From an uncultured bacterium (GTDB taxonomy: Bacteria; Patescibacteriota; Microgenomatia; Levybacterales; UBA12049): 64,000 nt of DNA. The translations under genes were made by a program, and so were the position numbers. The notes under the pieces were generated by a model, which did not search any database, was not told the DNA's origin, and saw only the letters and a list, made by a program, of their open reading frames with translations. Shown piece after piece: positions 3,972 through 39,232 of this stretch (positions within the stretch are counted from its first letter, which is position 1; every line of letters starts with the position of its first letter). The DNA is taken from assembly GCA_963826535.1 (NCBI GenBank), contig CAWGXL010000008.1, positions 2,679-66,678 on the forward strand, read 5' to 3'.

Positions 3972-4326
3972 TTTCTAATTCTTTGCCTGTTAAAGCAAAG
4001 TAAAGGTTTTGTAGTTGATGTAGGTATTTAAGTTCAACCCCTTCCATTGAACCATTAAAACTAACTTTAAACCCGTTATCTGTTTTATCTAAGTCTATTT
4101 CATTATTACTAAAATCACATTGTAATCCTTCTGGTTTAAATCCGCATCCTTCTAATATTTCAGGTGTGAGTGGAATGGGATGAACGTGATCTTGAATAAA
4201 TTCATTAATTAAATAAAAAAAACCGTCTTTTACAGACTGTTTTGATATTTTATCAACCTTAATCCAATTATCATTTATAATTGTTGTAATCCAATTCCCT
4301 ATCCGTAATTCTTCTGCTTGTATCAT
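3922..4326 (-). CDS. hypothetical protein, member of a duplicated family (paralog at 7702-8094)
   Basis: Shares ELRIGN, HPIPLTPEILEGCGFK and YLHQLQNLYFALTGKELE with the 7702..8094 product. Confidence 0.5.
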   Translation of the reverse strand: MIQAEELRIGNWITTIINDNWIKVDKISKQSVKDGFFYLINEFIQDHVHPIPLTPEILEGCGFKPEGLQCDFSNNEIDLDKTDNGFKVSFNGSMEGVELKYLHQLQNLYFALTGKELEIKLPVLTDSYNAEYKK

Positions 4327-8955: not shown

Positions 8956-9272
8956 CTGATTTATTTGAGTTGCATAAATTCTTTTTTGGTGTTTTAGGGC
9001 TTAGCGAATATGAATATTATACCAATTCCCCTTATACAAATTACTGCAAAATAAAAGGGTATGAAGATAAGCAGGAAAGACTTGCATCAATGCTTCGTGT
9101 AGCTTCATACCGCATCCATCAAAGCCTCGTTCAGAAGCCGCTTAATATTAAAGAATATTGGCCTTTGCCCTCTGATAAGATACCACAAGTTCAAAGATAT
9201 ACTGATAAAAAAGAGCCTTTGATAAGCAGGGAGTTGTTGGCGCAAATAAAGAAGGCTCATCATCTCACATAA
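8931..9272 (+). CDS. -1 frame extension of the tail assembly chaperone (G-T-like product via programmed frameshift)
   Basis: The A9 run at 8924-8932 (A AAA AAA) lies in frame 1; the -1 frame is open from 8931 and continues into the 8970 ORF up to the tape measure start. Confidence 0.45.
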   Translation, partial: KQTKKDRITDLFELHKFFFGVLGLSEYEYYTNSPYTNYCKIKGYEDKQERLASMLRVASYRIHQSLVQKPLNIKEYWPLPSDKIPQVQRYTDKKEPLISRELLAQIKKAHHLT

Positions 9273-17600: not shown

Positions 17601-18091
17601 TGGCAACAATAGCAATTAAAAAAGAAATCAATGGAGTAGCCTCTTATATAAGAAACAATGGCGAGCTTTTTACAATTTTCTCTCCAATTATTCTAAACAG
17701 TAGTGGCACAAGAGTTTTATTGCGGGATGCAATTGGAGACTTTGATTTTAGTTCTACCGATTCAATAACTATTAATGATATGTCGTATAATGGGCACACG
17801 GCAAAAGAAATTGTAGCAAAATTACGTGATGAGGTTTTTCTTAACGCTGGGGGGGCAGCGTCAACAACCGATGCAGGCGACCTCATAACAGGTACGCTTG
17901 ACGATGATAGACTAAGCGGCAACGTAATGTTTATGGAAATAGCTGCCACTTATGCCGCAATTGATCCAGGTACAAGAAAGAGACTAATATATGTATTGGC
18001 AGATGAAACAAATAATGATGATATATCCCTTTATGTACATAACGGAACCGTTTTAAAATCTATACACCTAACTGAACAACTTGAATCGTAA
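17600..18091 (+). CDS. hypothetical protein
   Basis: ORF between the two fibre genes. Confidence 0.35.
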   Translation: MATIAIKKEINGVASYIRNNGELFTIFSPIILNSSGTRVLLRDAIGDFDFSSTDSITINDMSYNGHTAKEIVAKLRDEVFLNAGGAASTTDAGDLITGTLDDDRLSGNVMFMEIAATYAAIDPGTRKRLIYVLADETNNDDISLYVHNGTVLKSIHLTEQLES

Positions 18092-20121
18092 TGAAAAAAT
18101 TATTCTTTCTATTTCTTATTATTTCTTCATTTGCAAGAGCGCAAACAGTGCAGACTATTTATCCTGCTTCTACCATTGCAGATATGAAAACTTATTATGG
18201 CAAATCCAGCAGAGTTCATGTTTTCGCTACTAATGAAGATTACATTCGTTGTACAGTTTGCACGGCGGATGAAATAACAATTTTTGCAGGAGCAGGTGGA
18301 AGAAAATGGAAAAAGTTTGCTGATTTAATTGGAGGCGATACAACAATATTTGAAACTGTATTAGATAGTACAGGGCAGCCCGGTCAAAGAATATTATGGA
18401 GTGCAGGAAATAAAATTAAAAGTCATCAATATTTTTTGTACGATTCGGCGAACCGAAAAGTTGTAATTAATCATAATAATGTAAGTATTGGTGGCGCGGG
18501 TGTAAAGTTATGGGTGCAGGGAAGTTCTACAGTGAACGGTTCTTTGGTTGTTGCAAGTTATGCGACTGCTTTTGGTTTTATAAAACCAGGGGGCACAGCT
18601 TCTCAATTTCTAAAAGCAAATGGTACAGTAGATGCGAATGATTACTTAACAACCGCTTTGGCAGCATCAACTTATGCCACTATTGCAAATCTTGCTCTAA
18701 AAAATAATATTTCAGACACAGCGGCAATGCTATCACCTTATCTCAGAAGTAATGTAGCTGGAGCAACATATCAGCCGCTTTTAATTAGTGGTACAAATAT
18801 TAAAACTGTAAATGGAACAGCGGTTTTGGGCAGTGGTGATTTAGTTGTAGGTGGCATTCCTGCAGGCTCAACAACAGAAATACAATACAATAATGCGGGT
18901 GCTTTTGGTGCAAGTTCTACGTTTAAATACATTTCCACAGCTGCACTTACTTCTGCTAAAAATTATTCAGCCTTATATATTAACCCGGTAACTACAGCCG
19001 TAGCCAGTACAGATACATTAATAGCTCTTGAACTACATAACACATTTAACAAAGGGGCTTATATAAATGTAGCAGATCATTTAATGAAGTTGAATTTGGG
19101 CTTTTTAAATGCGGATTCTAATTGGAACTTTAGTTATGGCAATGGTGGTGCTGCAAGGCCAACCGCTGGTAGCACAATCTTTATTGGCTACAGGGCCGGG
19201 CAGACTTCTACTTCGGCGTCATTTTCAAACTTCTTTGGTAGTAATGCCGGCTTTGCTGCCACATCTGCAACCGCCTCAAATTTTCTTGGCAATACTGCAG
19301 GCTCAGCCGCTACAGGTGCAAACAATTCGAACTTCCTCGGAACACAGTCAGGTGAAACCGCTACAGGTGCAAACAATTCAAACTTCCTCGGACAACAGGC
19401 TGGCATGACCGCCACATCTGCTTCTAACTCAAACTTTATGGGCTTTACGGCAGGCAAGAACGCCACCAATGCAAGTACTTCAAATTTCTTTGGTTACCAG
19501 GCAGGACTTGGTGCAACAAACGCAAGCAGCTCAACTTTTATTGGTGCTGATGTGGGAAAGGGTGCAACAGGAGCCGCTTATTCAGTTTTCATAGGCTATG
19601 TAGCAGGGAGTAATGCCACTCATGCAATTACCGGAGCTAACAATATTTTAATAGGCAAGGGAATAACAACGCCAACCGCAGGAACAACAAACACGTTTAA
19701 TATCGGCAATGTTCTTTACGGGAATAATACTGCTACGGGCACTACACCGCAGGCTGCAGCACAAACAACGGGAACGGTAGGTATCAATGTAACTACTCCA
19801 AACTCTACACTACAAGCATTAGGATCATTTAGTGCGGGCTATGTTGCTAAATCAGCCACTTATACAGCGACTATCTCAGACTATACTATTGAATGTACTG
19901 CCAATACTTTTACTGTTACCGTCCCTACATCTGTTGGCATAACCGGACGCGAATATTGGATAACAAATACAGGCTCAGGAACTATAACGCTTGCAACAAC
20001 TTCATCTCAAACTTTTGTAAACGTTACGGGCACTCCGACAACTTTAACTATTGCTCAATTCACAGGTTATAAGATCACAAGCAACGGGGCAAACTGGCTT
20101 GCTTATAAAATAGTAAACTAA
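18091..20121 (+). CDS. second tail-fibre-like protein with a signal peptide and periodic repeats
   Basis: About ten 13-aa repeats of the form SNF[FL]GxxAGxxATxA; shares GTNIKTVNGTAVLGSGDLV with the first fibre. Confidence 0.55.
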   Translation: MKKLFFLFLIISSFARAQTVQTIYPASTIADMKTYYGKSSRVHVFATNEDYIRCTVCTADEITIFAGAGGRKWKKFADLIGGDTTIFETVLDSTGQPGQRILWSAGNKIKSHQYFLYDSANRKVVINHNNVSIGGAGVKLWVQGSSTVNGSLVVASYATAFGFIKPGGTASQFLKANGTVDANDYLTTALAASTYATIANLALKNNISDTAAMLSPYLRSNVAGATYQPLLISGTNIKTVNGTAVLGSGDLVVGGIPAGSTTEIQYNNAGAFGASSTFKYISTAALTSAKNYSALYINPVTTAVASTDTLIALELHNTFNKGAYINVADHLMKLNLGFLNADSNWNFSYGNGGAARPTAGSTIFIGYRAGQTSTSASFSNFFGSNAGFAATSATASNFLGNTAGSAATGANNSNFLGTQSGETATGANNSNFLGQQAGMTATSASNSNFMGFTAGKNATNASTSNFFGYQAGLGATNASSSTFIGADVGKGATGAAYSVFIGYVAGSNATHAITGANNILIGKGITTPTAGTTNTFNIGNVLYGNNTATGTTPQAAAQTTGTVGINVTTPNSTLQALGSFSAGYVAKSATYTATISDYTIECTANTFTVTVPTSVGITGREYWITNTGSGTITLATTSSQTFVNVTGTPTTLTIAQFTGYKITSNGANWLAYKIVN

Positions 20122-20122
20122 A

Positions 20123-20734
20123 ATGGTTAAACACTATAGGAAATATATTGAAGTGAGTTATAAAATCTGCCAATTTAAGTGGCAAAAAAGAAGTGATGGT
20201 ATTAAAGAGTGGAATGGTAAATGTAAAAAATGTAGATACGTTGACAGATTTACGGACGCTGCTAAGATTCAAATATCAAAAGCACTAATTGGCAGATTTA
20301 CAGGCAGAAATCACCCTAATTGGGTAGAGCCAAAACTTTGTATTGACTGCCATATCCCGTTATCTAAAAAGTCAGGAAAAGATAAACGGCCAGTGAGATG
20401 TAAAAAATGTTTTGATGTTTTTAATAGAAAAGAAAACCATTGGAATTGGCAAAACGGATTATCAAATGAAAATCATTTAATAAGAAATTCAGTGAAGTAT
20501 AAGGGTTGGGCTAAGGCAGTTAAAGAAAGGGATAATTATACTTGCGTGATATGCAATAAAAAAGGAGGTGAATTACATTCCGACCACATTCAACCCTTTT
20601 CGCTATATCCCGATTTACGATTTGAAATATCAAACGGTAGAACACTATGTAAACCTTGTCACCAAAATTATGGATGGAACTTATTTAAAGAAAACAATCC
20701 GAGAAAACCTGTACAACTAAAACAAACCGGATAA
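20123..20734 (+). CDS. HNH homing endonuclease
   Basis: C-terminal CVICNKKGGELHSDHIQPFS...NGRTLCKPCH HNH motif plus several CxxC pairs. Confidence 0.65.
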   Translation: MVKHYRKYIEVSYKICQFKWQKRSDGIKEWNGKCKKCRYVDRFTDAAKIQISKALIGRFTGRNHPNWVEPKLCIDCHIPLSKKSGKDKRPVRCKKCFDVFNRKENHWNWQNGLSNENHLIRNSVKYKGWAKAVKERDNYTCVICNKKGGELHSDHIQPFSLYPDLRFEISNGRTLCKPCHQNYGWNLFKENNPRKPVQLKQTG

Positions 20735-20748
20735 AAAAATAAAAATAT

Positions 20749-21192
20749 ATGAAAAAGATACTTTTAGCAGCAATGATTTTAGTAAGTGTAAACTCTTTTG
20801 CTCAAATAGATTCCGGTAAAATAAAAACCTCTATATCGCTCCAGGTAAGAGACTGGCTTTACCTCAACAGTTTTCTTGCCACTTCTTCAGACGAGTTTGA
20901 AAATGTTTATGATTCTATGAAAGTAAAGTTAAGGGTAGCGGTTGCGCCAAATTTAACCACAGTAATCAAAGTGGATTCTGTCAGGCAGAACCAAATAGTA
21001 AGGCTTGCACAACTACTAAAAGGTTCAGAATATGGGGTGGTGGCAATCCCTTATACACGGATAAATACCGCGCTTAAATCAAACGCTTATCTAACGCAAA
21101 AGATTGATGATATGGATGCCACATATACGGCTCAATACAATCAGCGGGTGCAGGGTGAATTGGATAAATTAAGAAAGGTATTACAACAATAA
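20749..21192 (+). CDS. secreted hypothetical protein
   Basis: Signal peptide MKKILLAAMILVSVNSFAQ. Confidence 0.4.
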   Translation: MKKILLAAMILVSVNSFAQIDSGKIKTSISLQVRDWLYLNSFLATSSDEFENVYDSMKVKLRVAVAPNLTTVIKVDSVRQNQIVRLAQLLKGSEYGVVAIPYTRINTALKSNAYLTQKIDDMDATYTAQYNQRVQGELDKLRKVLQQ

Positions 21193-21206
21193 AAAATGAG
21201 CAATGA

Positions 21207-23648
21207 ATGGTTTTGACGAAAAAAACAATATTAGGTTTTGCATGGTTATTCATAATAATAACTCTTATACTCTTTGCTATACCTGCAAGAGCAATTGATT
21301 ATTACATTAGTTCTTCGGGAAGCGATATCAACAACGGTACTTCAACATCAACACCATGGGCTTCCATAGCGAAACTAAATAGCTTTTTTTCAAGTCTTCA
21401 ACCAGGTGACAACGTTTACTTCAAAAGAGGTGAAACATTCTACGGAACAATAACGGTAAATAAATCCGGTACTTCAAGTGCGCCTATTACTATTGGCGCT
21501 TATAGTACAGGGAACAGACCTCTCATTTCATCACTGATAACCGTATCAGGGTGGACAGCAGACCCAACATATACAGGTGTATATAGGAGTGCCATTAACT
21601 CAGCATTACCTTCTACTACAGTTAATATAGTATTAAGGAATGGACTGCAGGAGCCTATAGGCAGGTTCCCAAACCGTGACTATCCAACACCTCTTACAAA
21701 AGGATGGTTATCGTTAACCGGCCCAATAAACGGCTATACATCTATTACTCATTCACCAAGTGCCTCCGTTGCAGACTGGACGGGTGCAGAGCTTGTATTA
21801 AAAAGGGTGGCATGGATCATAGATAGAAATCCTATTACATCTCATTCGGGTAATATTATTACTTATTCTACAGCTCATTATTCAACCTCTAAATACGCAC
21901 CACTCTCTGGCTGGGGCTACTTTTTTCAATCTCATCCGCGAACCCTTGATCAATTAGGAGAATGGTATTATGATAAAGCTACAAAGCAGTTAAGTATGTA
22001 TTTCGGTAGCGGTGGAGTAGGCTCAAACGTTGTTCAGGTAGCAGCACTTCAACAGGTGATTTACAATGCCGGTTTTGATTATATAACATTCCAGGATTTA
22101 AACTTAGAAGCAGCTAATGACCAGGTAATTTATTTGTTTGGCACTTCAGGTAACAGGATTATAAATAATAAGATCATAGGTTGTAATGTACAATATGGTG
22201 GAGCTTATGGAATAAGAGCACCGGGTACTACAGGGCTTCTAATAGAAAATTGTTCTGTTAACAATCACAATAATAGTGGTATTGAACTTTCACCACAGGC
22301 AGCACAAGGGAGTATCAACTCTATAATAAGAAATTGTGAAGTAAGAGACATTCAACAAATAGTTGGTATGGGATTAAGTGGTGATGGACAAGGTAGGTCA
22401 ATTGGTAACTCAGACGGTGGACTCATTGAATATTGTACAATTATTAATTCCGGTTATATAGGTGTGCAAATTGGTGGCAACAATTCAATAGTTGATTATA
22501 ATTTAATTGATAGTATCGGTAATACAAAAGATGATGGTGGAGCAATTTATGAATCATCCAGTACATCAACACTAAACACAGGTAGAAAAGTGCGAAACAA
22601 TATCATATTACATGGTATTGGTGCCCCGGATGGGACGCTTAATAGTGCCGGCGGATTACAGGTAAACAAAAGCGTCAAAGGTATTTATATGGATGACTAT
22701 GCGAGTGGTACAGAGATAAGCGGTAATACTGTTGCATACTATCAATATGGGCTATTCTCACATAGCGGAAGAAATAACACCTGGTATAATAACACACTTT
22801 ACGGTAATGGTACAGGTAGCCCGGAGGGAGCCGGTTTATATTTTCAGCAAAATACAAATGATGTATCAAGGGGTAATGTCTTTAAGAAAAACATTGTATT
22901 TGCAACTACAAATTCAAGTGGTCAGGAAAATATACTTACTATGTTCACGGAATTTAACGATATAAATCTATTGGGTATTATAGACAGTAATTATTATGTC
23001 AGGCCACTTGATAGCAACCTGATTATTAAGATCACCCGTACGGGTTCGGCTATTGCTTATTATAATTTAACTCAGTGGAGAAACGCTACCATATATGATA
23101 ATAATACTTCCAAATCACCTCTATCATATCCGAGGCTTACAGCGCCTTCAACAATATTTAGATTTGAATATAATGCAACTAATTCACCTGTAACAATAAG
23201 CGGCTTTGGTGGATTCTATTGGTTGGATGGAAAAGGTACCCAATATTCACAGTCATTACTTTTACAACCTTATTCTTCAGTCGCTCTAATGAAAGGCGCA
23301 GTAGATGGCAGTAGTTCTAATATTGCGCCAACAGTAAGTATAATAAGCCCTTCCAGCGGTGCAGGTTATACGGCTCCTGGTACTGTGGTTATAGATGTTA
23401 CCGCAGGAGATGCAGATGGAACAATAGACCACATTGATTTTTATAGCGGAGGTACATTAATTGGCACTGATAATACTTCACCATACTCTTTTACGTGGAC
23501 ACCTGTTGGAGCGGGTAATTATTCATTAACAGCAGTAGCAATCGATAATGATGGCGGTATCACTACATCATCTTCAAAATCAATTACAGTAGCTAATCTT
23601 TCAAATCCGGTAATAGAAATTAAGATAAGAAAAAAACTTAAAGTATGA
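21207..23648 (+). CDS. right-handed beta-helix (pectate-lyase fold) protein with a C-terminal Ig-like domain; tailspike / polysaccharide depolymerase candidate
   Basis: N-terminal YYISSSGSD...TPWASIAKLNSFFSSLQPGDNVYFKRGETFYG, repeated ...IGGNN...NxI turns, and a C-terminal Ig-like segment. Confidence 0.6.
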   Translation: MVLTKKTILGFAWLFIIITLILFAIPARAIDYYISSSGSDINNGTSTSTPWASIAKLNSFFSSLQPGDNVYFKRGETFYGTITVNKSGTSSAPITIGAYSTGNRPLISSLITVSGWTADPTYTGVYRSAINSALPSTTVNIVLRNGLQEPIGRFPNRDYPTPLTKGWLSLTGPINGYTSITHSPSASVADWTGAELVLKRVAWIIDRNPITSHSGNIITYSTAHYSTSKYAPLSGWGYFFQSHPRTLDQLGEWYYDKATKQLSMYFGSGGVGSNVVQVAALQQVIYNAGFDYITFQDLNLEAANDQVIYLFGTSGNRIINNKIIGCNVQYGGAYGIRAPGTTGLLIENCSVNNHNNSGIELSPQAAQGSINSIIRNCEVRDIQQIVGMGLSGDGQGRSIGNSDGGLIEYCTIINSGYIGVQIGGNNSIVDYNLIDSIGNTKDDGGAIYESSSTSTLNTGRKVRNNIILHGIGAPDGTLNSAGGLQVNKSVKGIYMDDYASGTEISGNTVAYYQYGLFSHSGRNNTWYNNTLYGNGTGSPEGAGLYFQQNTNDVSRGNVFKKNIVFATTNSSGQENILTMFTEFNDINLLGIIDSNYYVRPLDSNLIIKITRTGSAIAYYNLTQWRNATIYDNNTSKSPLSYPRLTAPSTIFRFEYNATNSPVTISGFGGFYWLDGKGTQYSQSLLLQPYSSVALMKGAVDGSSSNIAPTVSIISPSSGAGYTAPGTVVIDVTAGDADGTIDHIDFYSGGTLIGTDNTSPYSFTWTPVGAGNYSLTAVAIDNDGGITTSSSKSITVANLSNPVIEIKIRKKLKV

Positions 23649-26491
23649 AATACCTGTTAACGATATTAATATTTATTTCATGCAATCAGTCTGAACCAAA
23701 AGTCACTACAAGAAGTACAACAGCATCAACAACAGGCAGAACTTTTTACATTTCTGAAAGTGGTAATGATGGAGGAAGCGGTACCATTAATTCACCATGG
23801 AGAACGATAAATAAACTAAACTCTTATTTCGGTAGCCTTCAGGCCGGTGATGTAGTATTATTTAGAAGAGGTGAAACATTTTACGGAACAATCACAGTAA
23901 ACAAATCGGGCACTTCAGGCAATCCTATTGTTATTAGCGATTACGGTGAAGGCGCAAAGCCTGTTATAACTTCCCTTGTTACACTTTCAGGATGGAATAA
24001 TGCAGGCAATGGTGTCTATGAAAGTGCCTCTAATTCTTCGTTTGATGCAGCCGTAAATGTGGTCCTTTTGAATGGTGTTATAAAAGGTATTGGCCGTTAT
24101 CCAAATGACACTTATTTGTATCTGGAAAGTCATGTAAGCAATACTTCCATAACAGATAATCAATTACCTTCTTCTCCAAATTGGACGGGAGCCGACGTTA
24201 TCATAAGAACTTCACGATGGACACTTGACAAAGGGAAAATAACAAATCATTCAGGGACCCGGATTACTTATACTCCCACACCTAACACTTACACACCGGT
24301 AAATAATTATGGGTACTTTATTCAGAATAATATTAAGACACTTGATCAGTTAGGGGAGTGGTATTACAATCCTTCAACGAAAAGGATTTATATGTATTTC
24401 GGGAGTAATAATCCGTCATCCTATAATGTGCAGGCCGCTTCATCTGATAACCTTGTTTACTCATCAAACAGAAGCTATGTGGGATTTGAAAATATAGAGT
24501 TCAAAGGAGCTAACGGTAACAATATAAATATTGTTGGTGGGGTAAATAATTTTATGACTAATTGTGATGTTGACTTTTCAGGCAAAGACGGACTAAACGT
24601 AACAGGCAGTTATTTTAAGTTAGAAAATTCAACGGTAATTAACTCGCTTAACAATGGTGTTCATGTTGGTAACTGCTATGCTTCACAAGTAAGAAATAAC
24701 CTGATAAAAAATAATTATTTCATTGCAGGTATGGGCGGAAGCGGAAATGGGCAAGGAGCAGGTGTAAGAAATAGTACAAACGGACTTGTAGAATATAATC
24801 AAATTATCAATTCAGGTTATATAGGTGTGCAACTTGGCGGCAATAATGCAATAGTTAAAAACAATCTTATTGACAGTTTTTGCTTTGTCAAAGATGATGG
24901 TGCAGCCGTATATACTTCTAATGGTGAGAATAATACATACACAGGAAGAAAGATAATAGGCAACATTATTTTAAATGCTATAGGTGCGCCAGCTGGCACT
25001 CCTTCAACAGCATATTCAGCGGAGGGTATTTACATGGATGATAATGTTAACGGGGTTGAAATTTCCGGTAACACTATTGCTAATTGTAACAGGGGTATAT
25101 TTCTTCATAATACCAAAAGTATAGGTGTAAAAGATAATACTGTTTTTTCAAATATAAATGGGCAGCTGTTTATGAAACATGATGCTTTAGGGGTTGCCCT
25201 CAGAGATCATATAATTACAAACAATATATTTTTTGCAAAGCAGTTGACGCAAAATGTAGCATCATTTATAACGAAGGATAATGATATCGCTCACATCGGA
25301 GATTTAGATAATAATTACTATGTACGTCCAATAAATGATAGGGTTACTTTTTATTCAACAATTTACTATTTAGCATCGGCGCAAGTTGTCAATTATATGG
25401 ATTTGGAAGCATGGAAAAGTAAGTACCCACATGATGAAGGTAGCAACATTTCCAGCAAATCAATTTCACCTTACAAACTTATCGGTTTGATAGGATCAAG
25501 CAAGTTTGCAAATAGCAGTTTCAATTCAAACGTATCAGGTGTTTTTGCAAATAAATGTGCTGTCTCATGGAGTAATTCAAATATGGATGGAGGCCATTTA
25601 AAAGTAGTTCCATCCGGTGAAGGATCAACAATTGTTATGAGTATTGGTGGGCTTACTTCCGGTAAAAGGTATATATTAAGGTATAGTGCGAAAAGCACAG
25701 CTACAATGAGCATAGCAGCCAATTTACGGGCAGCTAATTATATTCCTAACACCTTGCTTATGAGACGCACAATTTCTCCTAACAGATCTGAAAATGAGAT
25801 TTTATTTCAACCGTTTACAAATGAATCAAGTGCTGCACTTGTATTCACGGCAGCAGAAAGAGCAACCTATTATTTAGACAACATTCAACTCTATGAAGCA
25901 AACGCAACAGTAACCGACGTAGAAGATTCTATACGGTTTGAATACAATGCATCAACTAATACAAAATTGATTACACTGGATGGAAAATATACCGACGTTA
26001 AAAATAATATTTATGATCAGGGGATAACATTACAACCTTATTCATCAGCTGTACTAATAAAAGTAGGTGCGGGTATTATTAATCCTCCTATAGAATATGA
26101 ATCAGGAATATTAGAATCTGAAAATGCTGTTTTATATAATGCTGTTGTTGCATCAAATCATGCAGGCTTTACAGGAACAGGCTTTGCGGATTACATAAAT
26201 ACTACAGGTGATTTCGTAGAGTTCACGCTAAACAAAAAAAATACCGGATCGGCTTCACTTAGTTTTCGGTATGCTAATGGCGGATCTGCTAATCGTCCGT
26301 TAAGATTGGAAATTAATGGTATGATTAAAGCCGATGGACTTGCTTTTCCGCCGACAGGAGGTTGGGCTAAATGGTCAACAACAATACTGCCGGCAAACCT
26401 CAATGCAGGTGATAATAAAATAAGATTAACGGCTATCGGTAGCAGCGCGGGGAATATAGATCATTTGGCATGGGAGGACTTAAAGCCATGA
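23645..26491 (+). CDS. paralogous beta-helix protein with a C-terminal CBM6/CBM35-like carbohydrate-binding module (lipoprotein-type signal)
   Basis: N-terminal 60 aa nearly identical in pattern to the 21207 product; C-terminal GFTGTGFADY...SFRYANGGS...RPLRLEINGM...GGWAKW...DHLAW. Confidence 0.6.
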   Translation: MKYLLTILIFISCNQSEPKVTTRSTTASTTGRTFYISESGNDGGSGTINSPWRTINKLNSYFGSLQAGDVVLFRRGETFYGTITVNKSGTSGNPIVISDYGEGAKPVITSLVTLSGWNNAGNGVYESASNSSFDAAVNVVLLNGVIKGIGRYPNDTYLYLESHVSNTSITDNQLPSSPNWTGADVIIRTSRWTLDKGKITNHSGTRITYTPTPNTYTPVNNYGYFIQNNIKTLDQLGEWYYNPSTKRIYMYFGSNNPSSYNVQAASSDNLVYSSNRSYVGFENIEFKGANGNNINIVGGVNNFMTNCDVDFSGKDGLNVTGSYFKLENSTVINSLNNGVHVGNCYASQVRNNLIKNNYFIAGMGGSGNGQGAGVRNSTNGLVEYNQIINSGYIGVQLGGNNAIVKNNLIDSFCFVKDDGAAVYTSNGENNTYTGRKIIGNIILNAIGAPAGTPSTAYSAEGIYMDDNVNGVEISGNTIANCNRGIFLHNTKSIGVKDNTVFSNINGQLFMKHDALGVALRDHIITNNIFFAKQLTQNVASFITKDNDIAHIGDLDNNYYVRPINDRVTFYSTIYYLASAQVVNYMDLEAWKSKYPHDEGSNISSKSISPYKLIGLIGSSKFANSSFNSNVSGVFANKCAVSWSNSNMDGGHLKVVPSGEGSTIVMSIGGLTSGKRYILRYSAKSTATMSIAANLRAANYIPNTLLMRRTISPNRSENEILFQPFTNESSAALVFTAAERATYYLDNIQLYEANATVTDVEDSIRFEYNASTNTKLITLDGKYTDVKNNIYDQGITLQPYSSAVLIKVGAGIINPPIEYESGILESENAVLYNAVVASNHAGFTGTGFADYINTTGDFVEFTLNKKNTGSASLSFRYANGGSANRPLRLEINGMIKADGLAFPPTGGWAKWSTTILPANLNAGDNKIRLTAIGSSAGNIDHLAWEDLKP

Positions 26492-26787
26492 CAACAGTCA
26501 AACAAATAAATATTGACAAAAAGGAGAAACGGGTTACAAGGCAACAATACCGGGATGATGAACTACTAATAATTCTGAATCATCTAAAAGACGGGAAAGG
26601 ATTAAAAGAAATCGCTGCCTTAATGTTTCTAAGCGTTAATACTCTTTATGGCAAAGTTGAGCTTTTAAAATTTGACTGGGATGCAAGAAATTTAACGCAC
26701 CTGGTCGCACTTGGTTATCAAAAACGATATTTAAAAGTAGAAAATATTGAACATAAAAATAAAATTATTGAGGACTTGAAACCATGA
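26488..26787 (+). CDS. LuxR/GerE-family helix-turn-helix protein
   Basis: DDELLIILNHLKDGKGLKEIAALMFLSVNTLYGKVELLKFK matches the LuxR HTH pattern (rEleVL...G.snkeIA..L.iS..TV); ATGA overlap with the upstream stop. Confidence 0.5.
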   Translation: MTTVKQINIDKKEKRVTRQQYRDDELLIILNHLKDGKGLKEIAALMFLSVNTLYGKVELLKFDWDARNLTHLVALGYQKRYLKVENIEHKNKIIEDLKP

Positions 26788-27269
26788 TAGATATATCACA
26801 AATAAAATTATTGGCTATTGATGATGATGAAGGTATTATAGAAATACTTGAGCTTATGTTTAGTATGCATAAGGATGTCATTCCACAATATGAACTTTTT
26901 ACAGACGTAAGTAAGTTTATCTCGGCATTAAAACCTAATGTACACATTTGTATAGTAGATTATTTTTTGCACAGGCAAAACGGTCTTTCGCTAATTCAGC
27001 AGGTACTTAAAACTAATCCTTATTGCTGGTTTATTATGTTTTCAGGACAAAAAGATTTACAAGTTATTATAGACTTTATGAACAACACACATGGCAGCAG
27101 GTATATCGAAAAAGGCTCACAAGATTTTATGGATAAAATGCTTACTTATATAAAAGATATTGTTAGTAGGATAACTAAAATTGAATCACTTTTTTTTGAA
27201 TCATATCAAAATAGAAAAGCACTTAAAGAATTAAATATTACACTTACCAATTTAAAGGAGAATTTATAG
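26784..27269 (+). CDS. stand-alone response-regulator receiver (CheY-like REC) domain protein
   Basis: Aligns to CheY by eye: LLAIDDDEG (DD pair), ICIVDYFL (phospho-Asp), FIMFSGQKD (Thr/Ser), IEKG (Lys). Confidence 0.6.
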   Translation: MIDISQIKLLAIDDDEGIIEILELMFSMHKDVIPQYELFTDVSKFISALKPNVHICIVDYFLHRQNGLSLIQQVLKTNPYCWFIMFSGQKDLQVIIDFMNNTHGSRYIEKGSQDFMDKMLTYIKDIVSRITKIESLFFESYQNRKALKELNITLTNLKENL

Positions 27270-27805
27270 TGGAAAATTTAACAGACATTATTTCATATCT
27301 GGTAGGTGCAGGAGGAGTTATACTTTTTGTACTTGCATGGATAAGATTCAGGCATAGAGATAGTGCCGCTACGAATAAGATAAATGCCGAATCACTGAAA
27401 GTAAAGGCTGAAGCACAGGAAATACGAGCAAAAGCCGATGTATTAATTACAGACGGCGCACTAAGGATTGTTGATAGATTATCAGCGGATTTGGATGAAG
27501 CAAGAGACGAGATTGAAAAATTATTAAAAGTATCTGCTAAAATATCAGAACTATATGAAAAGTCTAAAATAGACCATAAAAAAGAAATTGAAGGATTAAA
27601 TCACCAATTAAAATACTCTAAAGATTTACTTGAAACTAAGAAACGGCATTGTATTGATACAAGAGCAAGAGTTAAACAATTACAAGATTTGCTAAAACTA
27701 AAGCAGGAAGGATTAACACAAGTACAGTTAGAGGAATTTATTTCAAAATTGAATGAGTTAATTAATTCTGCTCCATTAATAACACCAACAAATCTAAGTA
27801 GCTAA
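27269..27805 (+). CDS. membrane-anchored coiled-coil protein (i-spanin-like topology)
   Basis: N-terminal TM YLVGAGGVILFVLAWI followed by a long charged helical region. Confidence 0.35.
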   Translation: MENLTDIISYLVGAGGVILFVLAWIRFRHRDSAATNKINAESLKVKAEAQEIRAKADVLITDGALRIVDRLSADLDEARDEIEKLLKVSAKISELYEKSKIDHKKEIEGLNHQLKYSKDLLETKKRHCIDTRARVKQLQDLLKLKQEGLTQVQLEEFISKLNELINSAPLITPTNLSS

Positions 27806-27806
27806 A

Positions 27807-28115
27807 ATGGCTGAAAGTAATAGCATAGAAGAAATAAAAACAAGGCTGGAGGTTCAGACTGTAGTTAAACAGGAGCTTGCTGGTATGCTTAGACAAAACT
27901 CTCGCAGACAGTTAATACAATCTATTCTCACAGCTATGTGTACAGTAGCAACTATTATAGTTTTCATTTTCTACTTCACCCGTCCTACAAAGACAGATAT
28001 ATTAGTATTTAAGCAAATTCAAAGGGAAAGAATGTTGCTAAGAGCAGAACGGGATAGTATGTTAAAAGAAAAAGAAAATCTGCAAAGATTACAAATGAGA
28101 AAGAAGGGCTTTTAA
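27807..28115 (+). CDS. small coiled-coil protein with one TM segment
   Basis: ILTAMCTVATIIVFIFYF. Confidence 0.3.
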   Translation: MAESNSIEEIKTRLEVQTVVKQELAGMLRQNSRRQLIQSILTAMCTVATIIVFIFYFTRPTKTDILVFKQIQRERMLLRAERDSMLKEKENLQRLQMRKKGF

Positions 28116-28146
28116 AAACCTATGAAACCAATTAAAATCCATATCA

Positions 28147-28899
28147 ATGAAACACTTATTATTAATTATTGTTTTGTTTTCGTGTTCGAAAACAGAATTA
28201 CCAAAAACTGAAATTGAAGGTAAATTGACAATTAATGCACCAAAAAACCGAGGGTTAAGAGCACCAGACATGAGCATACTTGGGGATGAGAGTTGGTGGC
28301 CCATTAGTCATGGTGCTTTTCAATTCATAGAAACGTATTGGAAAGAAGTTAAGTTAGGCGACTACCTGAATGATGTGTACAAGATTCAACCAGGCATGAA
28401 GTTAATAATGAAAACAAATTGCCCTATTGTTAATATGCCTGAAATGCAAAAAGGACGGCCGAAACAAACTTGCGATTATGCATGGATAATTAACAAACAA
28501 ACACAATGCTACCAAGATACAGTTAATAACGAAAATGAATGTGGAAGCATGTTAGCAGTTGAGGTGACAAGAAACGATACATTAGTAGGCTTTATAGAAA
28601 AAACTACATATCGGTTTTTATCGGATTGTCATGCAGATCATATTCCCTGTGTCACTTGCCCTGACTTAGATAGAAAAATTTTTATGATTCAGCCGGCCTG
28701 GTCAGTAGATTTCTATTTTCTCTATACAGATATAACGGACCTTATACCACTAACCGGAACCAGTGAAATAGTTGTTACTCCGACTGTTAATTTCAGGCGT
28801 ATATGGATAGAACAGAATTACAATAATAATTCTTTGGACATTCCTATTACATTATTACCGGATGCACCATATGCAAGATTTACAAATCAGGCTTTATAA
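28147..28899 (+). CDS. Cys-rich lipoprotein
   Basis: Lipobox LFSC after the signal peptide; many Cys residues. Confidence 0.45.
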   Translation: MKHLLLIIVLFSCSKTELPKTEIEGKLTINAPKNRGLRAPDMSILGDESWWPISHGAFQFIETYWKEVKLGDYLNDVYKIQPGMKLIMKTNCPIVNMPEMQKGRPKQTCDYAWIINKQTQCYQDTVNNENECGSMLAVEVTRNDTLVGFIEKTTYRFLSDCHADHIPCVTCPDLDRKIFMIQPAWSVDFYFLYTDITDLIPLTGTSEIVVTPTVNFRRIWIEQNYNNNSLDIPITLLPDAPYARFTNQAL

Positions 28900-29245
28900 A
28901 TTAAGTAACCAATTAAAAATTAAAATTATGACACAAGAAGCGCAAACAGTTCCTCCTAAAGGGCTTTACACTTTACAAGTAAGCGACTTTGTAAAAGGGT
29001 TAGGATTTGTTTTATTCGGCAATTTAGCAGCAGCTTTAATTTTTTTAATTCGTCAAGACCATTGGCCTTCCTGGGTTGAATGGCAACCTTATGCCGAAAG
29101 TGCATTAACTGTGTTTTTAGCATATATAGGGAAAAACTTTTTCACTAATAATGTAGGTGAAGTTTTCACACAGGATAAGCCTGTAGTGAAGGTTGATATC
29201 GAAACCTTAGACAACCTAAAGCAAAAAGCACAAAACAACAATTGA
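28862..29245 (+). CDS. holin-like small membrane protein
   Basis: Two hydrophobic helices (GLGFVLFGNLAAALIFLI and ALTVFLAYIG) located upstream of the endolysin; the start may be the internal Met at 28928. Confidence 0.35.
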   Translation: MHHMQDLQIRLYKLSNQLKIKIMTQEAQTVPPKGLYTLQVSDFVKGLGFVLFGNLAAALIFLIRQDHWPSWVEWQPYAESALTVFLAYIGKNFFTNNVGEVFTQDKPVVKVDIETLDNLKQKAQNNN

Positions 29246-29345
29246 ATAATAACGAAAAAATCTCAACTGCACTGGTGTTATTAGGATTGATTGGCCTTGC
29301 AATAATATTTCTTTATTTATTAATCTATTATTAAAAATTAAAACT

Positions 29346-29810
29346 ATGTCGTTAAAATCATTCTTAAAAAGTATTGGCACTTTCTTTAAAAAGATTTTCA
29401 ATGGGTTAACTCCTATAGCTAAAGAGGCTATACATATTGGAGTTATCATAACCGAAAACTTAAAAAAATTTGTTGAAAGTGGTACAGCCGATGTACTTAC
29501 ATCTATAATCCCCGGCGATCTTGACGATAAAATAAAAGAAAGATTGCGTAAAGAGCTTCCTGTAATTCTTGTTAAGTTAAAGCTTGCCGAACAATGCAGC
29601 AATGAAACCGAACCGGATAAACTTGTGTTGTGCGCAATTAAAGTTTTGCAATCTATTGAGGGAGATTTCAAAAAAGATTTCTATGATGCCTTAGCTGTCC
29701 AGATAGGGCTTGTTTATGCCGATGGAAAAGTAACATGGGATGAACTAAAATATGTTATTAAATGGTTCTACGATAATAAATTTAAGCCAGAAACTTCAAA
29801 TAATGACTAA
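29346..29810 (+). CDS. hypothetical protein in the lysis region
   Basis: ORF between the holin-like gene and the endolysin. Confidence 0.35.
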   Translation: MSLKSFLKSIGTFFKKIFNGLTPIAKEAIHIGVIITENLKKFVESGTADVLTSIIPGDLDDKIKERLRKELPVILVKLKLAEQCSNETEPDKLVLCAIKVLQSIEGDFKKDFYDALAVQIGLVYADGKVTWDELKYVIKWFYDNKFKPETSNND

Positions 29811-30198
29811 ACTTATAAATACTCAGCTTACAAAAAGCTTTCATCTTATTGAATTTATTTGCAAAGATGGAACTTTTGTTCCTGAAGAGTACTATATTAA
29901 CGTCATAACTGTTGCGAATCAACTTCAAATTTTAAGAGATTATTTAGGCGAGCCGATACATATTCTTTCTGCTTATCGTACACCTTCGCATAATAAAAAG
30001 ATAGGAGGCAAACCAAAGAGCCAACATCTTACAGCAAGTGCAGCTGATATAATTGTTAAAAGCAAATCACCAAAACAATTAGCCGCTATTGTAGAAAAAT
30101 TAATAAGTGAAAAGAAATTAAAGTTTGGTGGAATGGGTGTTTATAAATCGTTCATTCATGTTGATATTAGGAAAAATAAAGCAAGATGGGAAGGATAA
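29752..30198 (+). CDS. endolysin, peptidase M15 (Peptidase_M15_3 / L-Ala-D-Glu or D-Ala-D-Ala peptidase fold)
   Basis: SAYRTPSHNKKIGGKPKSQHLTASAADI ... FIHVDIRK zinc-peptidase motifs; the likely start is the Met at 29809. Confidence 0.65.
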   Translation: MLLNGSTIINLSQKLQIMTKLINTQLTKSFHLIEFICKDGTFVPEEYYINVITVANQLQILRDYLGEPIHILSAYRTPSHNKKIGGKPKSQHLTASAADIIVKSKSPKQLAAIVEKLISEKKLKFGGMGVYKSFIHVDIRKNKARWEG

Positions 30199-30533
30199 AA
30201 TACAATATTAATTATTTCATACGCAAGTTTTCTGCTATACCGGAAAATAAATGGACAACATTTGAGTATGGCGAAAATGATATTCATTGCGTTTTTGGTC
30301 ATTGCGGAATGAGAAAAAAAGATATAAGCATAGAAGGTAATGCAGAGGCAGAAGCGTTTGTGGAATTGTTTGACGCAAAAGTAAGGATAGTACAAATTAA
30401 CGATGGTTACAATTGCCATTATCAGCAGCTAACATCAAAAGCCCGCATCTTGGCCGCACTGTATGATTTGAAAGCTGAGGAAGCGATTAAAGAAACGTTA
30501 GTAATAATAAATGAGATGGATATGGTAACATAA
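30186..30533 (+). CDS. hypothetical protein
   Basis: ORF translationally coupled to the endolysin. Confidence 0.35.
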   Translation: MGRIKYNINYFIRKFSAIPENKWTTFEYGENDIHCVFGHCGMRKKDISIEGNAEAEAFVELFDAKVRIVQINDGYNCHYQQLTSKARILAALYDLKAEEAIKETLVIINEMDMVT

Positions 30534-30574
30534 AAAGCTTTGCATCGGAAAATTATTTTCCTATGTAAGACGAG

Positions 30575-30600
30575 CCACCCCGTTTTTACGGGGGGCTTTT
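30575..30600 (+). terminator. rho-independent terminator ending the late/lysis operon
   Basis: ccccg-ttttta-cgggg hairpin followed by gctttt. Confidence 0.5.
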
Positions 30601-30700
30601 ATTAACTGGATTTTTTCATGTGTATTTTGTAAGCAAAGCTGCTTTATTCTTAGAGCAGCTTTTTTATTTTACAAATGTGCATAACTTTATTATGAATTAA

Positions 30701-31434: not shown

Positions 31435-31530
31435 TATTTAATACGTAAAATTCATAAAGCTCTAATTATTAGAGCTTTTTAGTGTAAAATAGTGTAATAT
31501 TTTGCGAAAAAGTGGTTTAAAAGGGTACAT

Positions 31531-31557
31531 TTGTTTTAGTAAAGTTTTAGTCATTGA
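31531..31557. repeat. second pair of TTTTAGTAA-like repeats overlapping the integrase promoter region
   Basis: ttgttttagtaaagttttagtcattg; a TTG...TAcaTTTG Bacteroidetes-type promoter motif at 31502-31533 is also visible. Confidence 0.35.
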
Positions 31558-32714
31558 CAAAATACACCCTTAAATTACTGCTTTACACCTATCAGGTAAA
31601 CACACAAGGGCTATTCCCTATCTATATAAGAACAACAATAAACCGCAAAACTTCCTATAAAGCTACAGGGCATTTTGTAAGCAAAAAAATGTGGGATGAA
31701 AAGAATAGCCAGGTTAAAGCCGGTCATCCGAATGCTGAGTTAATTAATGCTCACCTTTCATTTACTAAGACAGAATGGGAGAAAAAAATTGTTACTACTC
31801 AACTTAAGGGAACTGATTTAACAGCAGCAGAATTGAAAGAAAGTTTTATAAGTGATAAGCATAATATTTTTCATTATGTTGAGGGATTTATTAAAAGATT
31901 AAAAGGTAAAAAATCTAAAGCCACTTTAGAAAACTATAAAAAACATTTGCTGAAGCTTGAGACTTTTAATAAGAGCCGGGCACTTCAATTTGAAAGTATA
32001 GACGCAAATTTTTTGCATAAGTATGAAACCTGGTTAAGAGAAAACATAAACTTCAGAAAAGCAGATAGTACAAATTATATCCATGCTATTTGGAAAACTT
32101 TTAAGACCTGGTTTAATGCTGCAAAGAAAGAAGGTATAATAAGTAACTACCCTTTTGACCAGTATGAGAATCCTGTTTATGTTTCACCGGATAAGGACTA
32201 TTTAACAAACGAAGAATTAAAATTGTTTGAAGATTTTGCGGATGAATCTTTGGATCTTATTTTAAAAGAGAGTGCAGTTTATTTTTTATTCGGTTGCTAT
32301 TCAGGATTAAGAATTTCAGATTGGTATCAGTTCAAATTTGATAAGCATGTAAAAGGAAATAAAATAAGATTGCGTCCGGCAAAGACTAAACACAAATGGG
32401 TAGAGATGATAATAAGCAAACCTTTGCAAAGAAATCTTTTAAGGATGCAGCAAATACCAATTCAATTAAAGGAGCAGACTATAAATGAAAAACTAAAGAT
32501 CATAGCCGCTAAAATAGGTATCAGCAAGCATTTAACTACGCATTCATCTCGTCACTCGTTCGGGATAACCATTTGTCTTGCTAACGGTCTTTCAAGTGAA
32601 ACAACAGCAGAATTAATGGGAATAACATTAGATACTTTTGTAAAAAATTACTCTCAAATAACTCAATCAAAAATAGATCATGAAACAAGTAAGGCCTGGG
32701 AAAAATTAAATTGA
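31554..32714 (+). CDS. int: tyrosine integrase (site-specific recombinase)
   Basis: N-terminal arm-binding-like LFPIYIRTTINRKTSY, catalytic HSSRHSF and LMGITLDTFVKNY (Tyr); a TTG start is inferred. Confidence 0.75.
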   Translation: MTKYTLKLLLYTYQVNTQGLFPIYIRTTINRKTSYKATGHFVSKKMWDEKNSQVKAGHPNAELINAHLSFTKTEWEKKIVTTQLKGTDLTAAELKESFISDKHNIFHYVEGFIKRLKGKKSKATLENYKKHLLKLETFNKSRALQFESIDANFLHKYETWLRENINFRKADSTNYIHAIWKTFKTWFNAAKKEGIISNYPFDQYENPVYVSPDKDYLTNEELKLFEDFADESLDLILKESAVYFLFGCYSGLRISDWYQFKFDKHVKGNKIRLRPAKTKHKWVEMIISKPLQRNLLRMQQIPIQLKEQTINEKLKIIAAKIGISKHLTTHSSRHSFGITICLANGLSSETTAELMGITLDTFVKNYSQITQSKIDHETSKAWEKLN

Positions 32715-38350: not shown

Positions 38351-39232
38351 ATGACAAAAGAATTAACAACACAATCTCAAACGGTAAAGTCTCTCTTTGA
38401 ACGGGAGGACGTAAAAAAGAAGTTCCATGAACTTTTAGGAAAAAGATCAACAAGTTTTATTACAAGTGTCTTACAAATTGCGGTGCAAAATCAACTCCTT
38501 GCAAAAGCCGATCCTGTAAGCATTTATCAGGCCGCAGCCGTAGCAGCTACCCTTGATCTTCCTCTTAACTCTAATCTTGGCTTTGCTTACATAGTACCTT
38601 ATAATGATAAGAACAAAGGACAGGTAGCGCAATTCCAAATGGGGTACAAAGGGTTTATTCAACTGGCACAACGTAGCGGGCAATTTAAAAGCATTTATGC
38701 ATCTCCGATTTATCAGGGTCAAATAGTTTCTGAAAATCCGCTTGAAGGCTATTTGTTTGACTTTACTAAAAAAAGCGATGTGCTTGTCGGGTATGCAGCA
38801 AAATTCAAATTACTTAATGGATATGAAGCCACGCTTTACATGACAGTGGAACAACTTAAAAAACATGGCAACCAATACAGCCAGTCATTTAAAAAAGGCT
38901 TTGGGTTATGGAAAGACAACTTTGATGCCATGGCATCTAAAACAGTTTTAAAACTCCTTCTTTCAAAGTTCGCACCTCTTTCGGTTGATATGCAAAGGGC
39001 AGTTATTACAGACCAGGCTATCATTAACAATGCAGATACAGAAGATGTAACCTACATAGATAATGAACCGGTTATTGTGGATAAGGAAGCCGAGAGAATA
39101 AGCCTACTGATAGGGGATGCTAAAACAATTGACGATTTAATGAAGGTAAAAGAATTTGTACTTCCTGAGCAGGCAGAATTATATGAAACAAAATTTGCAG
39201 AACTGAGCGAAAAGGCGATGGAGGCCGCATAA
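38351..39232 (+). CDS. recT: RecT-family single-strand annealing protein
   Basis: SFITSVLQIAVQNQLLAKADPVSIYQAAAVAATLDLPLN...GFAYIVPY...QFQMGYKGFIQLAQRSGQ matches RecT. Confidence 0.7.
   Translation: MTKELTTQSQTVKSLFEREDVKKKFHELLGKRSTSFITSVLQIAVQNQLLAKADPVSIYQAAAVAATLDLPLNSNLGFAYIVPYNDKNKGQVAQFQMGYKGFIQLAQRSGQFKSIYASPIYQGQIVSENPLEGYLFDFTKKSDVLVGYAAKFKLLNGYEATLYMTVEQLKKHGNQYSQSFKKGFGLWKDNFDAMASKTVLKLLLSKFAPLSVDMQRAVITDQAIINNADTEDVTYIDNEPVIVDKEAERISLLIGDAKTIDDLMKVKEFVLPEQAELYETKFAELSEKAMEAA

Follow-up and report, generated by a model that had tools for sequence, protein, structure and literature searches.

The time at which phages lyse their hosts is controlled by clocks intrinsic to the holin and by a few antiholins that sense superinfection. 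To our knowledge, none of the known lysis-timing regulators contains a two-component receiver or a PAS domain, and the lysis systems of Bacteroidota phages are almost uncharacterised. Here we analyse genes A to I, a series ending in a phage lysis cassette, in a 64,000-nucleotide (nt) stretch of DNA, hereafter the window, from contig CAWGXL010000008.1 of an uncultured bacterium. The phage part of the window (positions 1 to ~56,790) carries a gene for a stand-alone response-regulator receiver (B) that runs directly into a gene for a membrane-anchored helical protein (C), ahead of a holin-like gene (F) and an endolysin gene (H). An earlier reading of this DNA from its letters alone, referred to below as the original prediction, had proposed a phage module for signalling or lysis timing, and every feature named in it was found again in its place.

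The closest described regulators are the antiholins RI/RIII of phage T4 and S107 of lambda and the lysis regulator gp62 of phage N4 (PMC12642591). Each of them is a small protein in or at the membrane whose gene neighbours that of a holin, as is the case for several proteins of the present cassette, and like the cassette as a whole they are proposed to set lysis time by a signal; there is no sequence similarity between them. Two apparent precedents were rejected: the label "Receiver domain" on N4 gp63 denotes a region of the holin only, and the cREC of jumbo phages is an NAD-linked, divergent receiver from an unrelated context. Signalling proteins of bacterial type that could report on the host are borne by other phages as well, among them VqmA-Phi of VP882, the LuxR-type receptors of Aeromonas phages and the agr genes of phiCDHM1 (PMC10426928; PMC4124054). 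Phage receptors for host signals are, however, transcription factors with ligand-binding domains that act on the lysis-lysogeny switch, whereas B has no DNA-binding domain and lies in a late lysis cassette, and the LuxR-type protein encoded next to it (A) lacks a ligand-binding domain. REC-fold or response-regulator homologues have been annotated in tailed phages and giant viruses (PMC4124054). These include a stand-alone REC-fold protein of 149 amino acids (aa) in Alteromonas phage V22 and others in tailed phages, so that a viral receiver alone is not new, and the LuxR-type helix-turn-helix (HTH), the holin and the M15 endolysin are likewise of known kinds. Nothing in the annotations of INPHARED, IMG/VR and PHROGs or in the literature searched provides a precedent for a receiver-only protein that heads a holin cassette together with a coupled helical anchor, and, in line with the original prediction, which knew of no described phage system of this architecture, no identical system appeared among INPHARED phages, IMG/VR or GTDB genomes.

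A stand-alone receiver coupled to a membrane-anchored helical protein

Profile, alignment and structural model all point to B being a true receiver with an intact phospho-site, presumably fit for phosphorylation. With the Pfam Response_reg model (PF00072) it scores 32.6 bits (E = 9.6e-8), slightly more than the gathering score of 30.2, and a search among 5.8 billion proteins returned 13 homologues, all of them stand-alone receivers of 152-164 aa without an HTH domain, 36-59% identical to B and each (13/13) with a precomputed PF00072 match. Six residues are invariant in the alignment of these 14 sequences, namely D13 and D14 of the acidic pocket, the phospho-acceptor D59, which aligns with the acceptor aspartate of receivers in the Protein Data Bank (PDB), the Ser/Thr residue S87, the aromatic switch Y107 and the lysine K110. 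Their retention down to 36% identity argues for an intact receiver maintained by selection. In its AlphaFold2 (AF2) model (pLDDT 87.7), B has the (beta-alpha)5 fold with five strands and five helices, and the top 50 Foldseek matches are receivers without exception, with template-modelling scores of up to 0.86 on the target. Score, residues and fold thus bear out the original prediction of a stand-alone receiver possessing all phospho-acceptor residues.

Helix alpha5 of the model runs on as a single helix over residues 115-160, which gives B a C-terminal helix of ~45 residues; the protein looks like a receiver followed by a signalling helix with no output domain after it. Structural neighbours that also cover this helix are the DctD receiver with its linker (1qkk/1l5y), Pseudomonas aeruginosa RssB (3f7a) and WspR (3bre), whose linkers show the same long extension of alpha5, and the closest structural relatives of B retain a dimerising linker helix. 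These proteins share the fold and the DD/D/S/Y/K set with B, as do CheY, Spo0F and the REC-HD-GYP regulators. What distinguishes B from receivers with coiled-coil linkers is that no output domain follows the helix, that its gene lies in a phage late operon and is always coupled to one for a membrane-anchored helical protein, and that no cognate kinase gene is found nearby. The best NCBIfam match of B is to a REC-HD-GYP type regulator (B residues 9-155) with FixJ weaker (3e-5), PorX is just one generic receiver (rank 19) among the fold matches, and the annotation of phrog_731 reads "unknown function". As the original prediction had it, no histidine kinase domain was detected among the phage proteins scanned, three open reading frames (ORFs) of ~205 aa lying outside the scan. 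No member of the receiver family of B was found in IMG/VR or in GTDB genomes, and the matches from a scan of JGI metagenomes were discarded as generic receivers of 22-28% identity.

Related sequences compared with the window are numbered L001-L030, and nine distinct loci contain the receiver (the window, L001, L002, L010, L014, L015/16, L017, L018 and L022). At all nine, the very next gene after the receiver encodes a helical protein anchored at its N terminus, here C, and its start lies at -4 relative to the receiver stop (ATGA) in five loci, at -1 in the window, at -8 in L002 and 2-3 nt downstream in the rest. Downstream of this pair, the related loci carry one or two small membrane proteins and then either F or another small multi-spanning protein. 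The C proteins fall into two sequence types, of 178-183 and 122-133 aa, which track two receiver subfamilies. The two types find no support as homologues (hhalign probability 1.3%), and a single family comprising long C, short C and the helical protein of L024 described below was rejected for want of hhalign support. We therefore treat C as a class defined in part by architecture; the long type within it forms a true family. A homologue of the long type also occurs in L023 (blastp 1e-8), a locus without a receiver.

The N-terminal anchor that the original prediction gave to C was found; its coiled coil is weakly supported by a crude heptad score (p~0.06; for the tail of B, p~0.1). Charges flanking the transmembrane segment of the long type amount to 0 to -2 on the N-terminal and +3/+4 on the C-terminal side (-2/+3 for C of the window), and the positive-inside rule accordingly predicts a cytoplasmic helical domain. 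A single cysteine is present in the long type within the motif K(K/R)(R/E)HC(I/V) (window, L014 and L015/L016), whereas neither the L023 homologue nor the short type has it; were it to form disulphides, it would argue for a periplasmic location and so against the prediction from charges. Gene D likewise has the predicted transmembrane segment, at residues 35-59; the heptad score for the coiled coil proposed for it is not significant. Homologues of D occur in L014 and L015 (54% and 47% identity), and a protein of L023 shares its architecture. The lipoprotein E has the lipobox (LFSC) and the eight cysteines behind its description in the original prediction as a Cys-rich lipoprotein; no counterpart of E turned up in the related loci that were examined.

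A holin-like protein family beside three types of endolysin

Gene F belongs to a family of 17 members that conserve the motifs TVPPKG, HWPxWxEW and NNVGQxFxxDKPxV, and its product has one clear and one weaker hydrophobic stretch followed by a charged tail. It matched none of the holin profiles of Pfam and PHROGs. Holins are classically recognised as small membrane proteins that stay in position when the endolysin next to them is replaced by one of another type. F shows this pattern, holding the same place beside three unrelated endolysin types in different phages: M15_3, GH108 with PG_binding_3, and M15_4. By context, F would therefore be a holin with two transmembrane segments, and as such would be expected to open lethal membrane lesions that let endolysin out at a set time; on this view it represents a previously unannotated holin family, defined together with its accessory proteins.

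The position of the upstream genes directly ahead of the lysis cassette (holin-like gene and M15 endolysin) was confirmed, with one correction to the earlier gene order: the gene for a soluble protein (G) intervenes between F and the endolysin gene. A weak homologue of G follows F in L025 (L025_161; blastp 8e-5), and in L026 and L028 the protein encoded behind F has a motif in common with G by eye only. In L026 this G-like protein (161 aa) is followed by the endolysin with GH108 and PG_binding_3. The distant F of L029 precedes a lipoprotein with a C-terminal transmembrane segment, two small transmembrane proteins and an M15_3 endolysin, while the distant F cassette of L030 has an M15_4 endolysin after it. 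In both loci (IMG/VR; L029 1070-1534, L030 6194-6658) a 154-aa protein combines a lipobox (LFGC) with a C-terminal transmembrane segment, which is the architecture of a unimolecular spanin (u-spanin), and we regard it as a candidate u-spanin of uncultured Bacteroidota-type phages.

All F cassettes examined have one or two small membrane-anchored helical proteins encoded just upstream of F. Outside the receiver lineage, a hidden Markov model (HMM) search of six-frame translations revealed no receiver in them, and in L023 homologues of both C and D accompany F without one. Because F cassettes and C/D homologues occur without it, the receiver is best seen as an add-on to a pre-existing membrane module. 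F cassettes with C- and D-like genes are also found in contigs with structural genes of crAss type, namely L023 (39.6 kb, Logan), which has Pfam hits to CrAss_Ring_1/2 and crAss_MUZ, and L027 (100.7 kb, IMG/VR), which has the same gene order and N-termini closely similar by eye; their presence there indicates that the F family spans quite different phage lineages.

L024 (GCA_034680565.1, JAXOUH010054705.1), a phage-like contig, presents another arrangement. Its positions 396-1666 encode a 309-aa protein with an N-terminal transmembrane segment and two PAS domains, both over threshold (42 and 41.6 bits); the end of this gene overlaps the start of one for a 116-aa N-anchored helical protein, and an F-family gene lies directly downstream. 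The PAS protein and its helical partner display the same pattern of flanking charges as the long C proteins. While F of L024 is 75% identical to that of L001, the units upstream differ, with a membrane-tethered double-PAS protein and its own helical protein in one case and receiver and C in the other, which suggests a joint exchange of sensor and adaptor. At one locus only, this occupation of the receiver's slot by PAS domains is the strongest comparative hint that the upstream genes feed signals into the cassette.

A possible signalling input to holin triggering

The reading that we tentatively prefer is that B provides an optional cytoplasmic signalling input to the holin cassette, acting through C and shifting the triggering of F. 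B would be phosphorylated by a host histidine kinase or by acetyl phosphate, donors that come into question because no kinase was detected in the phage. Phosphorylation would alter the association of B with the membrane-anchored C via the C-terminal helix of B, and this change would advance or delay the triggering of F, so that lysis timing would be tied to the signalling state of the host. The membrane-tethered PAS protein of L024 would then be an alternative sensor with the same job, and A a lineage-specific, stand-alone regulator gene, recently inserted and not an obligatory partner of B. Besides the retention of the six canonical receiver residues, this proposal draws on the adjacency of receiver and C (9/9), the co-variation of receiver subfamily and type of C, the differing upstream units of L024 and L001 ahead of near-identical F proteins (75%), the flanking charges of C, the late-gene position, the dimerising linker helix in the closest structural relatives of B, and the constancy of F beside three endolysin types. 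The idea of a lysis-timing or signalling module put forward in the original prediction survives in this form, strengthened by the comparative data though still a conjecture, with C and the holin F rather than A as partners of the receiver.

Several points weigh against this proposal. C and F cassettes lacking any receiver (L023 and L025-L030) imply that B is dispensable for the core function, and the long and short C proteins that would transmit its signal are not demonstrably homologous. The topology of C comes from the positive-inside rule alone, and the cysteine present in three of the four long-type proteins (absent from L023) would suit a periplasmic domain like that of an inner-membrane spanin (i-spanin). 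What comes after the receiver-C pair of L010 is a small protein with two transmembrane segments and then a prohead protease rather than an endolysin; the PAS analogue is known from a single locus; and the adjacency and coupled starts of the two genes may merely reflect tight operon packing. We note, finally, that phosphodonor, B-C contact, topology of C and effect on lysis are all steps that we infer.

If true, this proposal would mean that a phage reads the two-component signalling of its host (envelope stress, nutrients or density) to time lysis. A receiver wired into the holin cassette would also offer a tractable way to ask how Bacteroidota phages time and execute lysis. It is a more speculative and rather doubtful extension that, in one lineage of Bacteroidota phages, holin triggering is gated by cytoplasmic sensors that can be exchanged at the head of the lysis cassette, either a receiver fed by host kinases or, in a sister cassette, a membrane-tethered double-PAS protein, each with its own membrane-anchored helical adaptor. 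Such a system would be without precedent as a lysis clock under direct control of a host phosphorelay, and would add a new output mode for single-domain response regulators.

Spanins as the main rival reading

The main rival is a serious one, even if we hold it to be unlikely on balance. C would be an i-spanin and E a large, separated outer-membrane spanin (o-spanin), genes C-D-E-F-G-H would form an ordinary cassette, and B would be unrelated cargo, for instance a phosphate sink or decoy late in infection. C does resemble an i-spanin in architecture, with an N-terminal transmembrane segment and a helical region, and three of the four long C proteins have a single cysteine; E carries a lipobox; and both genes lie in a lysis cassette, all of which recalls Rz/Rz1 of lambda and the u-spanin gp11 of phage T1. 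Separated spanin genes are documented, the most extreme separation being the ~1 kb of Bacteroides phage B40-8 (PMC6139136). Homologues of C and D occur in L023 without a receiver, and the u-spanin-type lipoprotein of L029 and L030 implies that genes of this kind do occur in F cassettes.

The candidate o-spanin itself fits less well. E alone has 250 residues, whereas both spanins together average at most 250 (PMC6139136), which makes it far too large by comparison with lambda Rz/Rz1, and it is missing in related loci: in L014 and L015, D is followed by a multi-spanning protein or by the end of the contig. Nor does the region 27000-30600 contain an embedded or overlapping small lipoprotein ORF, E being the sole ORF with a lipobox and D splitting it from C. 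The charge bias of the transmembrane segment of C predicts an N-out/C-in orientation, opposite to that of Rz. The spanin interpretation also leaves unexplained both the coupling of receiver and C at nine of nine loci and the PAS protein in the same slot. Even if B proved to be just a phosphate sink, it would show cleanly how a virus can draw on the phosphorelay of its host while encoding no kinase.

Origin of gene A and the split-regulator reading

Gene A is barely recognisable as what it appears to be, a very divergent LuxR/GerE-type HTH protein specific to this phage. The Pfam GerE model (PF00196) does not match it at E<=1, the only Pfam match being HTH_23 (E = 0.038; 14.3 bits), and NCBIfam yields only TraR (0.01) and CsgD (0.04), over the C-terminal HTH regions of those families. 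A PDB sequence search with A alone returned nothing at E<=10, and no close homologue emerged from a word-indexed protein search. Only when 1.84 billion representatives were searched exhaustively with phmmer did four remote homologues emerge (E 4e-5 to 7e-4), all of which exceed the gathering score of Pfam GerE (32.8 to 103 bits), and a profile with these four included retrieves the structures of NarL, LiaR, VraR, TraR and GerE. The AF2 model has helices at residues 11-34 (confident from ~20), 39-45, 50-64 and 69-78 with a core pLDDT of ~86; its top 50 matches in the PDB are all LuxR/GerE HTH domains (root-mean-square deviation 1-2 Å over 53-62 residues), with the caveat that the alignment given to AF2 consisted of GerE proteins. 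The miss by the Pfam model, taken by itself, speaks against the GerE/LuxR-type HTH of the original prediction; the deeper search and the model support it, with a length of 99 rather than 100 aa. Initiation at another ATG, at 26470, would lengthen it to 105 aa.

The gene lies between two copies of a 37-nt direct repeat, which are 73% identical over their whole length, agree at 16/18 of the leading positions and are spaced by 296 nt; one copy spans the junction of the fibre-like gene with A and the other that of A with B. Since the repeat duplicates the junction, the beta-helix protein encoded upstream and A both end in EDLKP and a stop, followed by ATGA. The repeat was not found upstream of receiver genes in the other loci, and an A-like gene precedes the receiver in none of the six in which the upstream gene is visible (L001, L002, L010, L014, L017 and L018). 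Beta-helix homologues sit ahead of the receiver in L001, L002 and L010, directly so in L001; unrelated ORFs of 103, 127 and 46 aa occupy the place in L002, L014 and L018, respectively, and in L017 a fragment of at least 79 aa, cut by the contig end, is unrelated to A. In L010 a methyltransferase gene (Methyltransf_23; 3544-4167) is interposed between beta-helix gene and receiver; a weakly similar methyltransferase-like ORF lies at 3261-3971 of the window, below threshold (23.7 against 27 bits). The slot directly upstream of the receiver thus appears to be a hotspot of gene gain, and on the simplest reading A is a single-gene cassette recently inserted at the ancestral fibre/receiver junction, which was duplicated in the process.

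These findings bear on the possibility that A and B are a split regulator of the NarL/FixJ type, in which phosphorylated B would bind A and control its DNA binding and, with it, phage transcription (lysis or lysogeny). We consider this improbable. In its favour are the LuxR/GerE-type HTH of A, the complete receiver of B, the overlap of their genes through the ATGA at 26784, which is present as the original prediction stated, and the appearance of FixJ as one of the weaker receiver families that B matches in NCBIfam. NarL/FixJ regulators do combine REC and GerE domains, and the remote homologues of A are GerE proteins; but there the two are joined in one polypeptide with the receiver N-terminal, whereas here separate ORFs encode them and the HTH gene precedes that of the receiver. 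The pair also lacks conservation, the HTH gene is apparently a recent insertion and Pfam GerE misses it. Because the duplicated junction brackets A, the ATGA coupling of A and B would have been copied rather than selected for their partnership. B, moreover, has best matches that are not of NarL type (DctD, RssB, WspR and REC-HD-GYP), as well as a conserved C-terminal helix and a conserved downstream partner of its own, and stand-alone GerE-type proteins act without receivers, as exemplified by Bacillus subtilis GerE (PDB 1fse). The functional A-B pair envisaged in the original prediction thus finds no support.

Late operon and phage genome

Genes A to I are most simply read as late genes co-transcribed with the tail-fibre-like genes upstream, because this region has neither an internal terminator nor a Bacteroidota -7 motif. 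No terminator was found on the + strand from the fibre-like genes up to the two hairpins that follow gene I. A scan for sigma-70 promoters was uninformative (61 found against 60.5 expected) and the Bacteroidota -33/-7 motif was used instead; the -7 motif, TAnnTTTG, does not occur on the + strand between 23166 and 30724. Across the window the -7 motif is rarer than expected (54 found against 85), and the sole full + strand match to TTTG-N(15-23)-TAnnTTTG lies at 31501-31533, 21 nt before the start of the integrase gene. Overlapping starts link the fibre gene to C, through ATGA at 26488 (beta-helix protein and A) and at 26784, and through the junction TAGTG, in which the TAG stop of B and the GTG start of C share a nucleotide.

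This organisation is relevant to a further possibility, that A to E are moron cargo for lysogenic conversion or superinfection exclusion, acting on the envelope or signalling of the lysogen with no role in lysis. The hypervariable slot upstream of the receiver (HTH, methyltransferase, other ORFs or nothing), the strain-specific occurrence of A and E and the integrase of a temperate phage would agree with it. Yet there is no promoter motif of Bacteroidota type or terminator belonging to these genes on the + strand between 23.2 and 30.6 kb, their starts overlap from the fibre gene to C, PADLOC returned no defence-system hits, and the receiver-C pair persists, at identities as low as 36%, in phages whose integrases differ, so that we judge such a role quite improbable. 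An anti-phage defence system was rejected, as there was no meaningful PADLOC match.

The phage part of the window has a G+C content of 33% and nearly all of its genes on the + strand. Besides the genes of Table 1, a helicase and a primase gene were identified. Composition, the Bacteroidota-type integrase and the best matches of endolysin H, which are to Flavobacterium and Nonlabens phages (44-50% identity), lead us to infer a temperate phage with a Bacteroidota host. Among the annotated phages of INPHARED, megablast of the 20-32 kb region found no relatives and tblastn of B, C, E, F and G no match, the endolysin alone resembling known phages. Near 56,790 the G+C content rises from ~27% to ~78% inside 200 nt and stays at 67-78% up to the end of the window, and beyond ~56.8 kb both strands are densely packed with overlapping ORFs, a usual trait of high-GC DNA. 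The source contig is listed at 66,951 bp. This part looks like DNA foreign to the phage, attached by a chimeric join during assembly or because unrelated sequences were concatenated.

Table 1. Coordinates of the features of the window discussed in the text
Feature	Position	Strand	Description	Evidence or remark
Tape measure	9272-11602
Beta-helix protein	23645..26491	+	948 aa, beta-helix and CBM6, tail-fibre/depolymerase-like	Pfam Beta_helix 3.6e-9, CBM_6 3.7e-9
Direct repeat, left copy	26474..26510	+	fibre-stop/A-start junction, GAGGACTTAAAGCCATGA...	repeat search
Gene A	26488..26787	+	99 aa, probable stand-alone LuxR/GerE-type HTH	remote homologues, AF2 model
Direct repeat, right copy	26770..26806	+	A-stop/B-start junction, GAGGACTTGAAACCATGA...	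repeat search
Gene B	26784..27269	+	161 aa, single-domain response-regulator receiver	Pfam, alignment, AF2
Gene C	27269..27805	+	178 aa, transmembrane residues 3-27, then long charged helical region	GTG start overlaps B stop by 1 nt
Gene D	27807..28115	+	102 aa, bitopic, charged C-terminal helix
Gene E	28147..28899	+	250 aa, predicted lipoprotein
Gene F	28928..29245	+	105 aa, holin-like membrane protein	ORF open from 28862; homologues start at the ATG at 28928
Gene G	29346..29810	+	154 aa, soluble	phrog_2653 9.5e-5
Gene H	29752..30198	+	endolysin, Peptidase_M15_3	Pfam 1.8e-21, phrog_894 endolysin 6e-32; probable start ATG 29803
Gene I	30186..30533	+	115 aa, last in operon
Terminator-like hairpins	30578..30662	+	two, intrinsic-terminator-like, end of late operon	after gene I
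Integrase	31554-32714		tyrosine integrase, Bacteroidota-type	Arm-DNA-bind_5
RecT	38351-39232
Large terminase	50066-51244
Portal	51578-53062

The tail-fibre-like beta-helix proteins encoded at 18091-26491 bear N-terminal secretion signals, exemplified by the protein starting at 18091 (MKKLFFLFLIISSFARA), that starting at 21207, with a hydrophobic segment ending in ARA, and the 948-aa protein starting at 23645, which has a lipoprotein-like N-terminus (MKYLLTILIFISC) with the lipobox ISC. Signal-like N-termini are also found in the beta-helix homologues of L001 and L010. Signals of this kind are unexpected for virion proteins assembled in the cytoplasm, and the proteins bearing them may be exported depolymerases; that they are cargo of the type IX secretion system (T9SS) was rejected, NCBIfam showing no T9SS C-terminal domain. 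Among the fibre-like genes, a 203-aa ORF (20123-20734) has two sub-threshold NCBIfam matches, one with the HNH region of IscB (7.5e-7) and the other with a multihaem CxxCH protein, and may represent a Cys-rich insertion of HNH type in the structural module.

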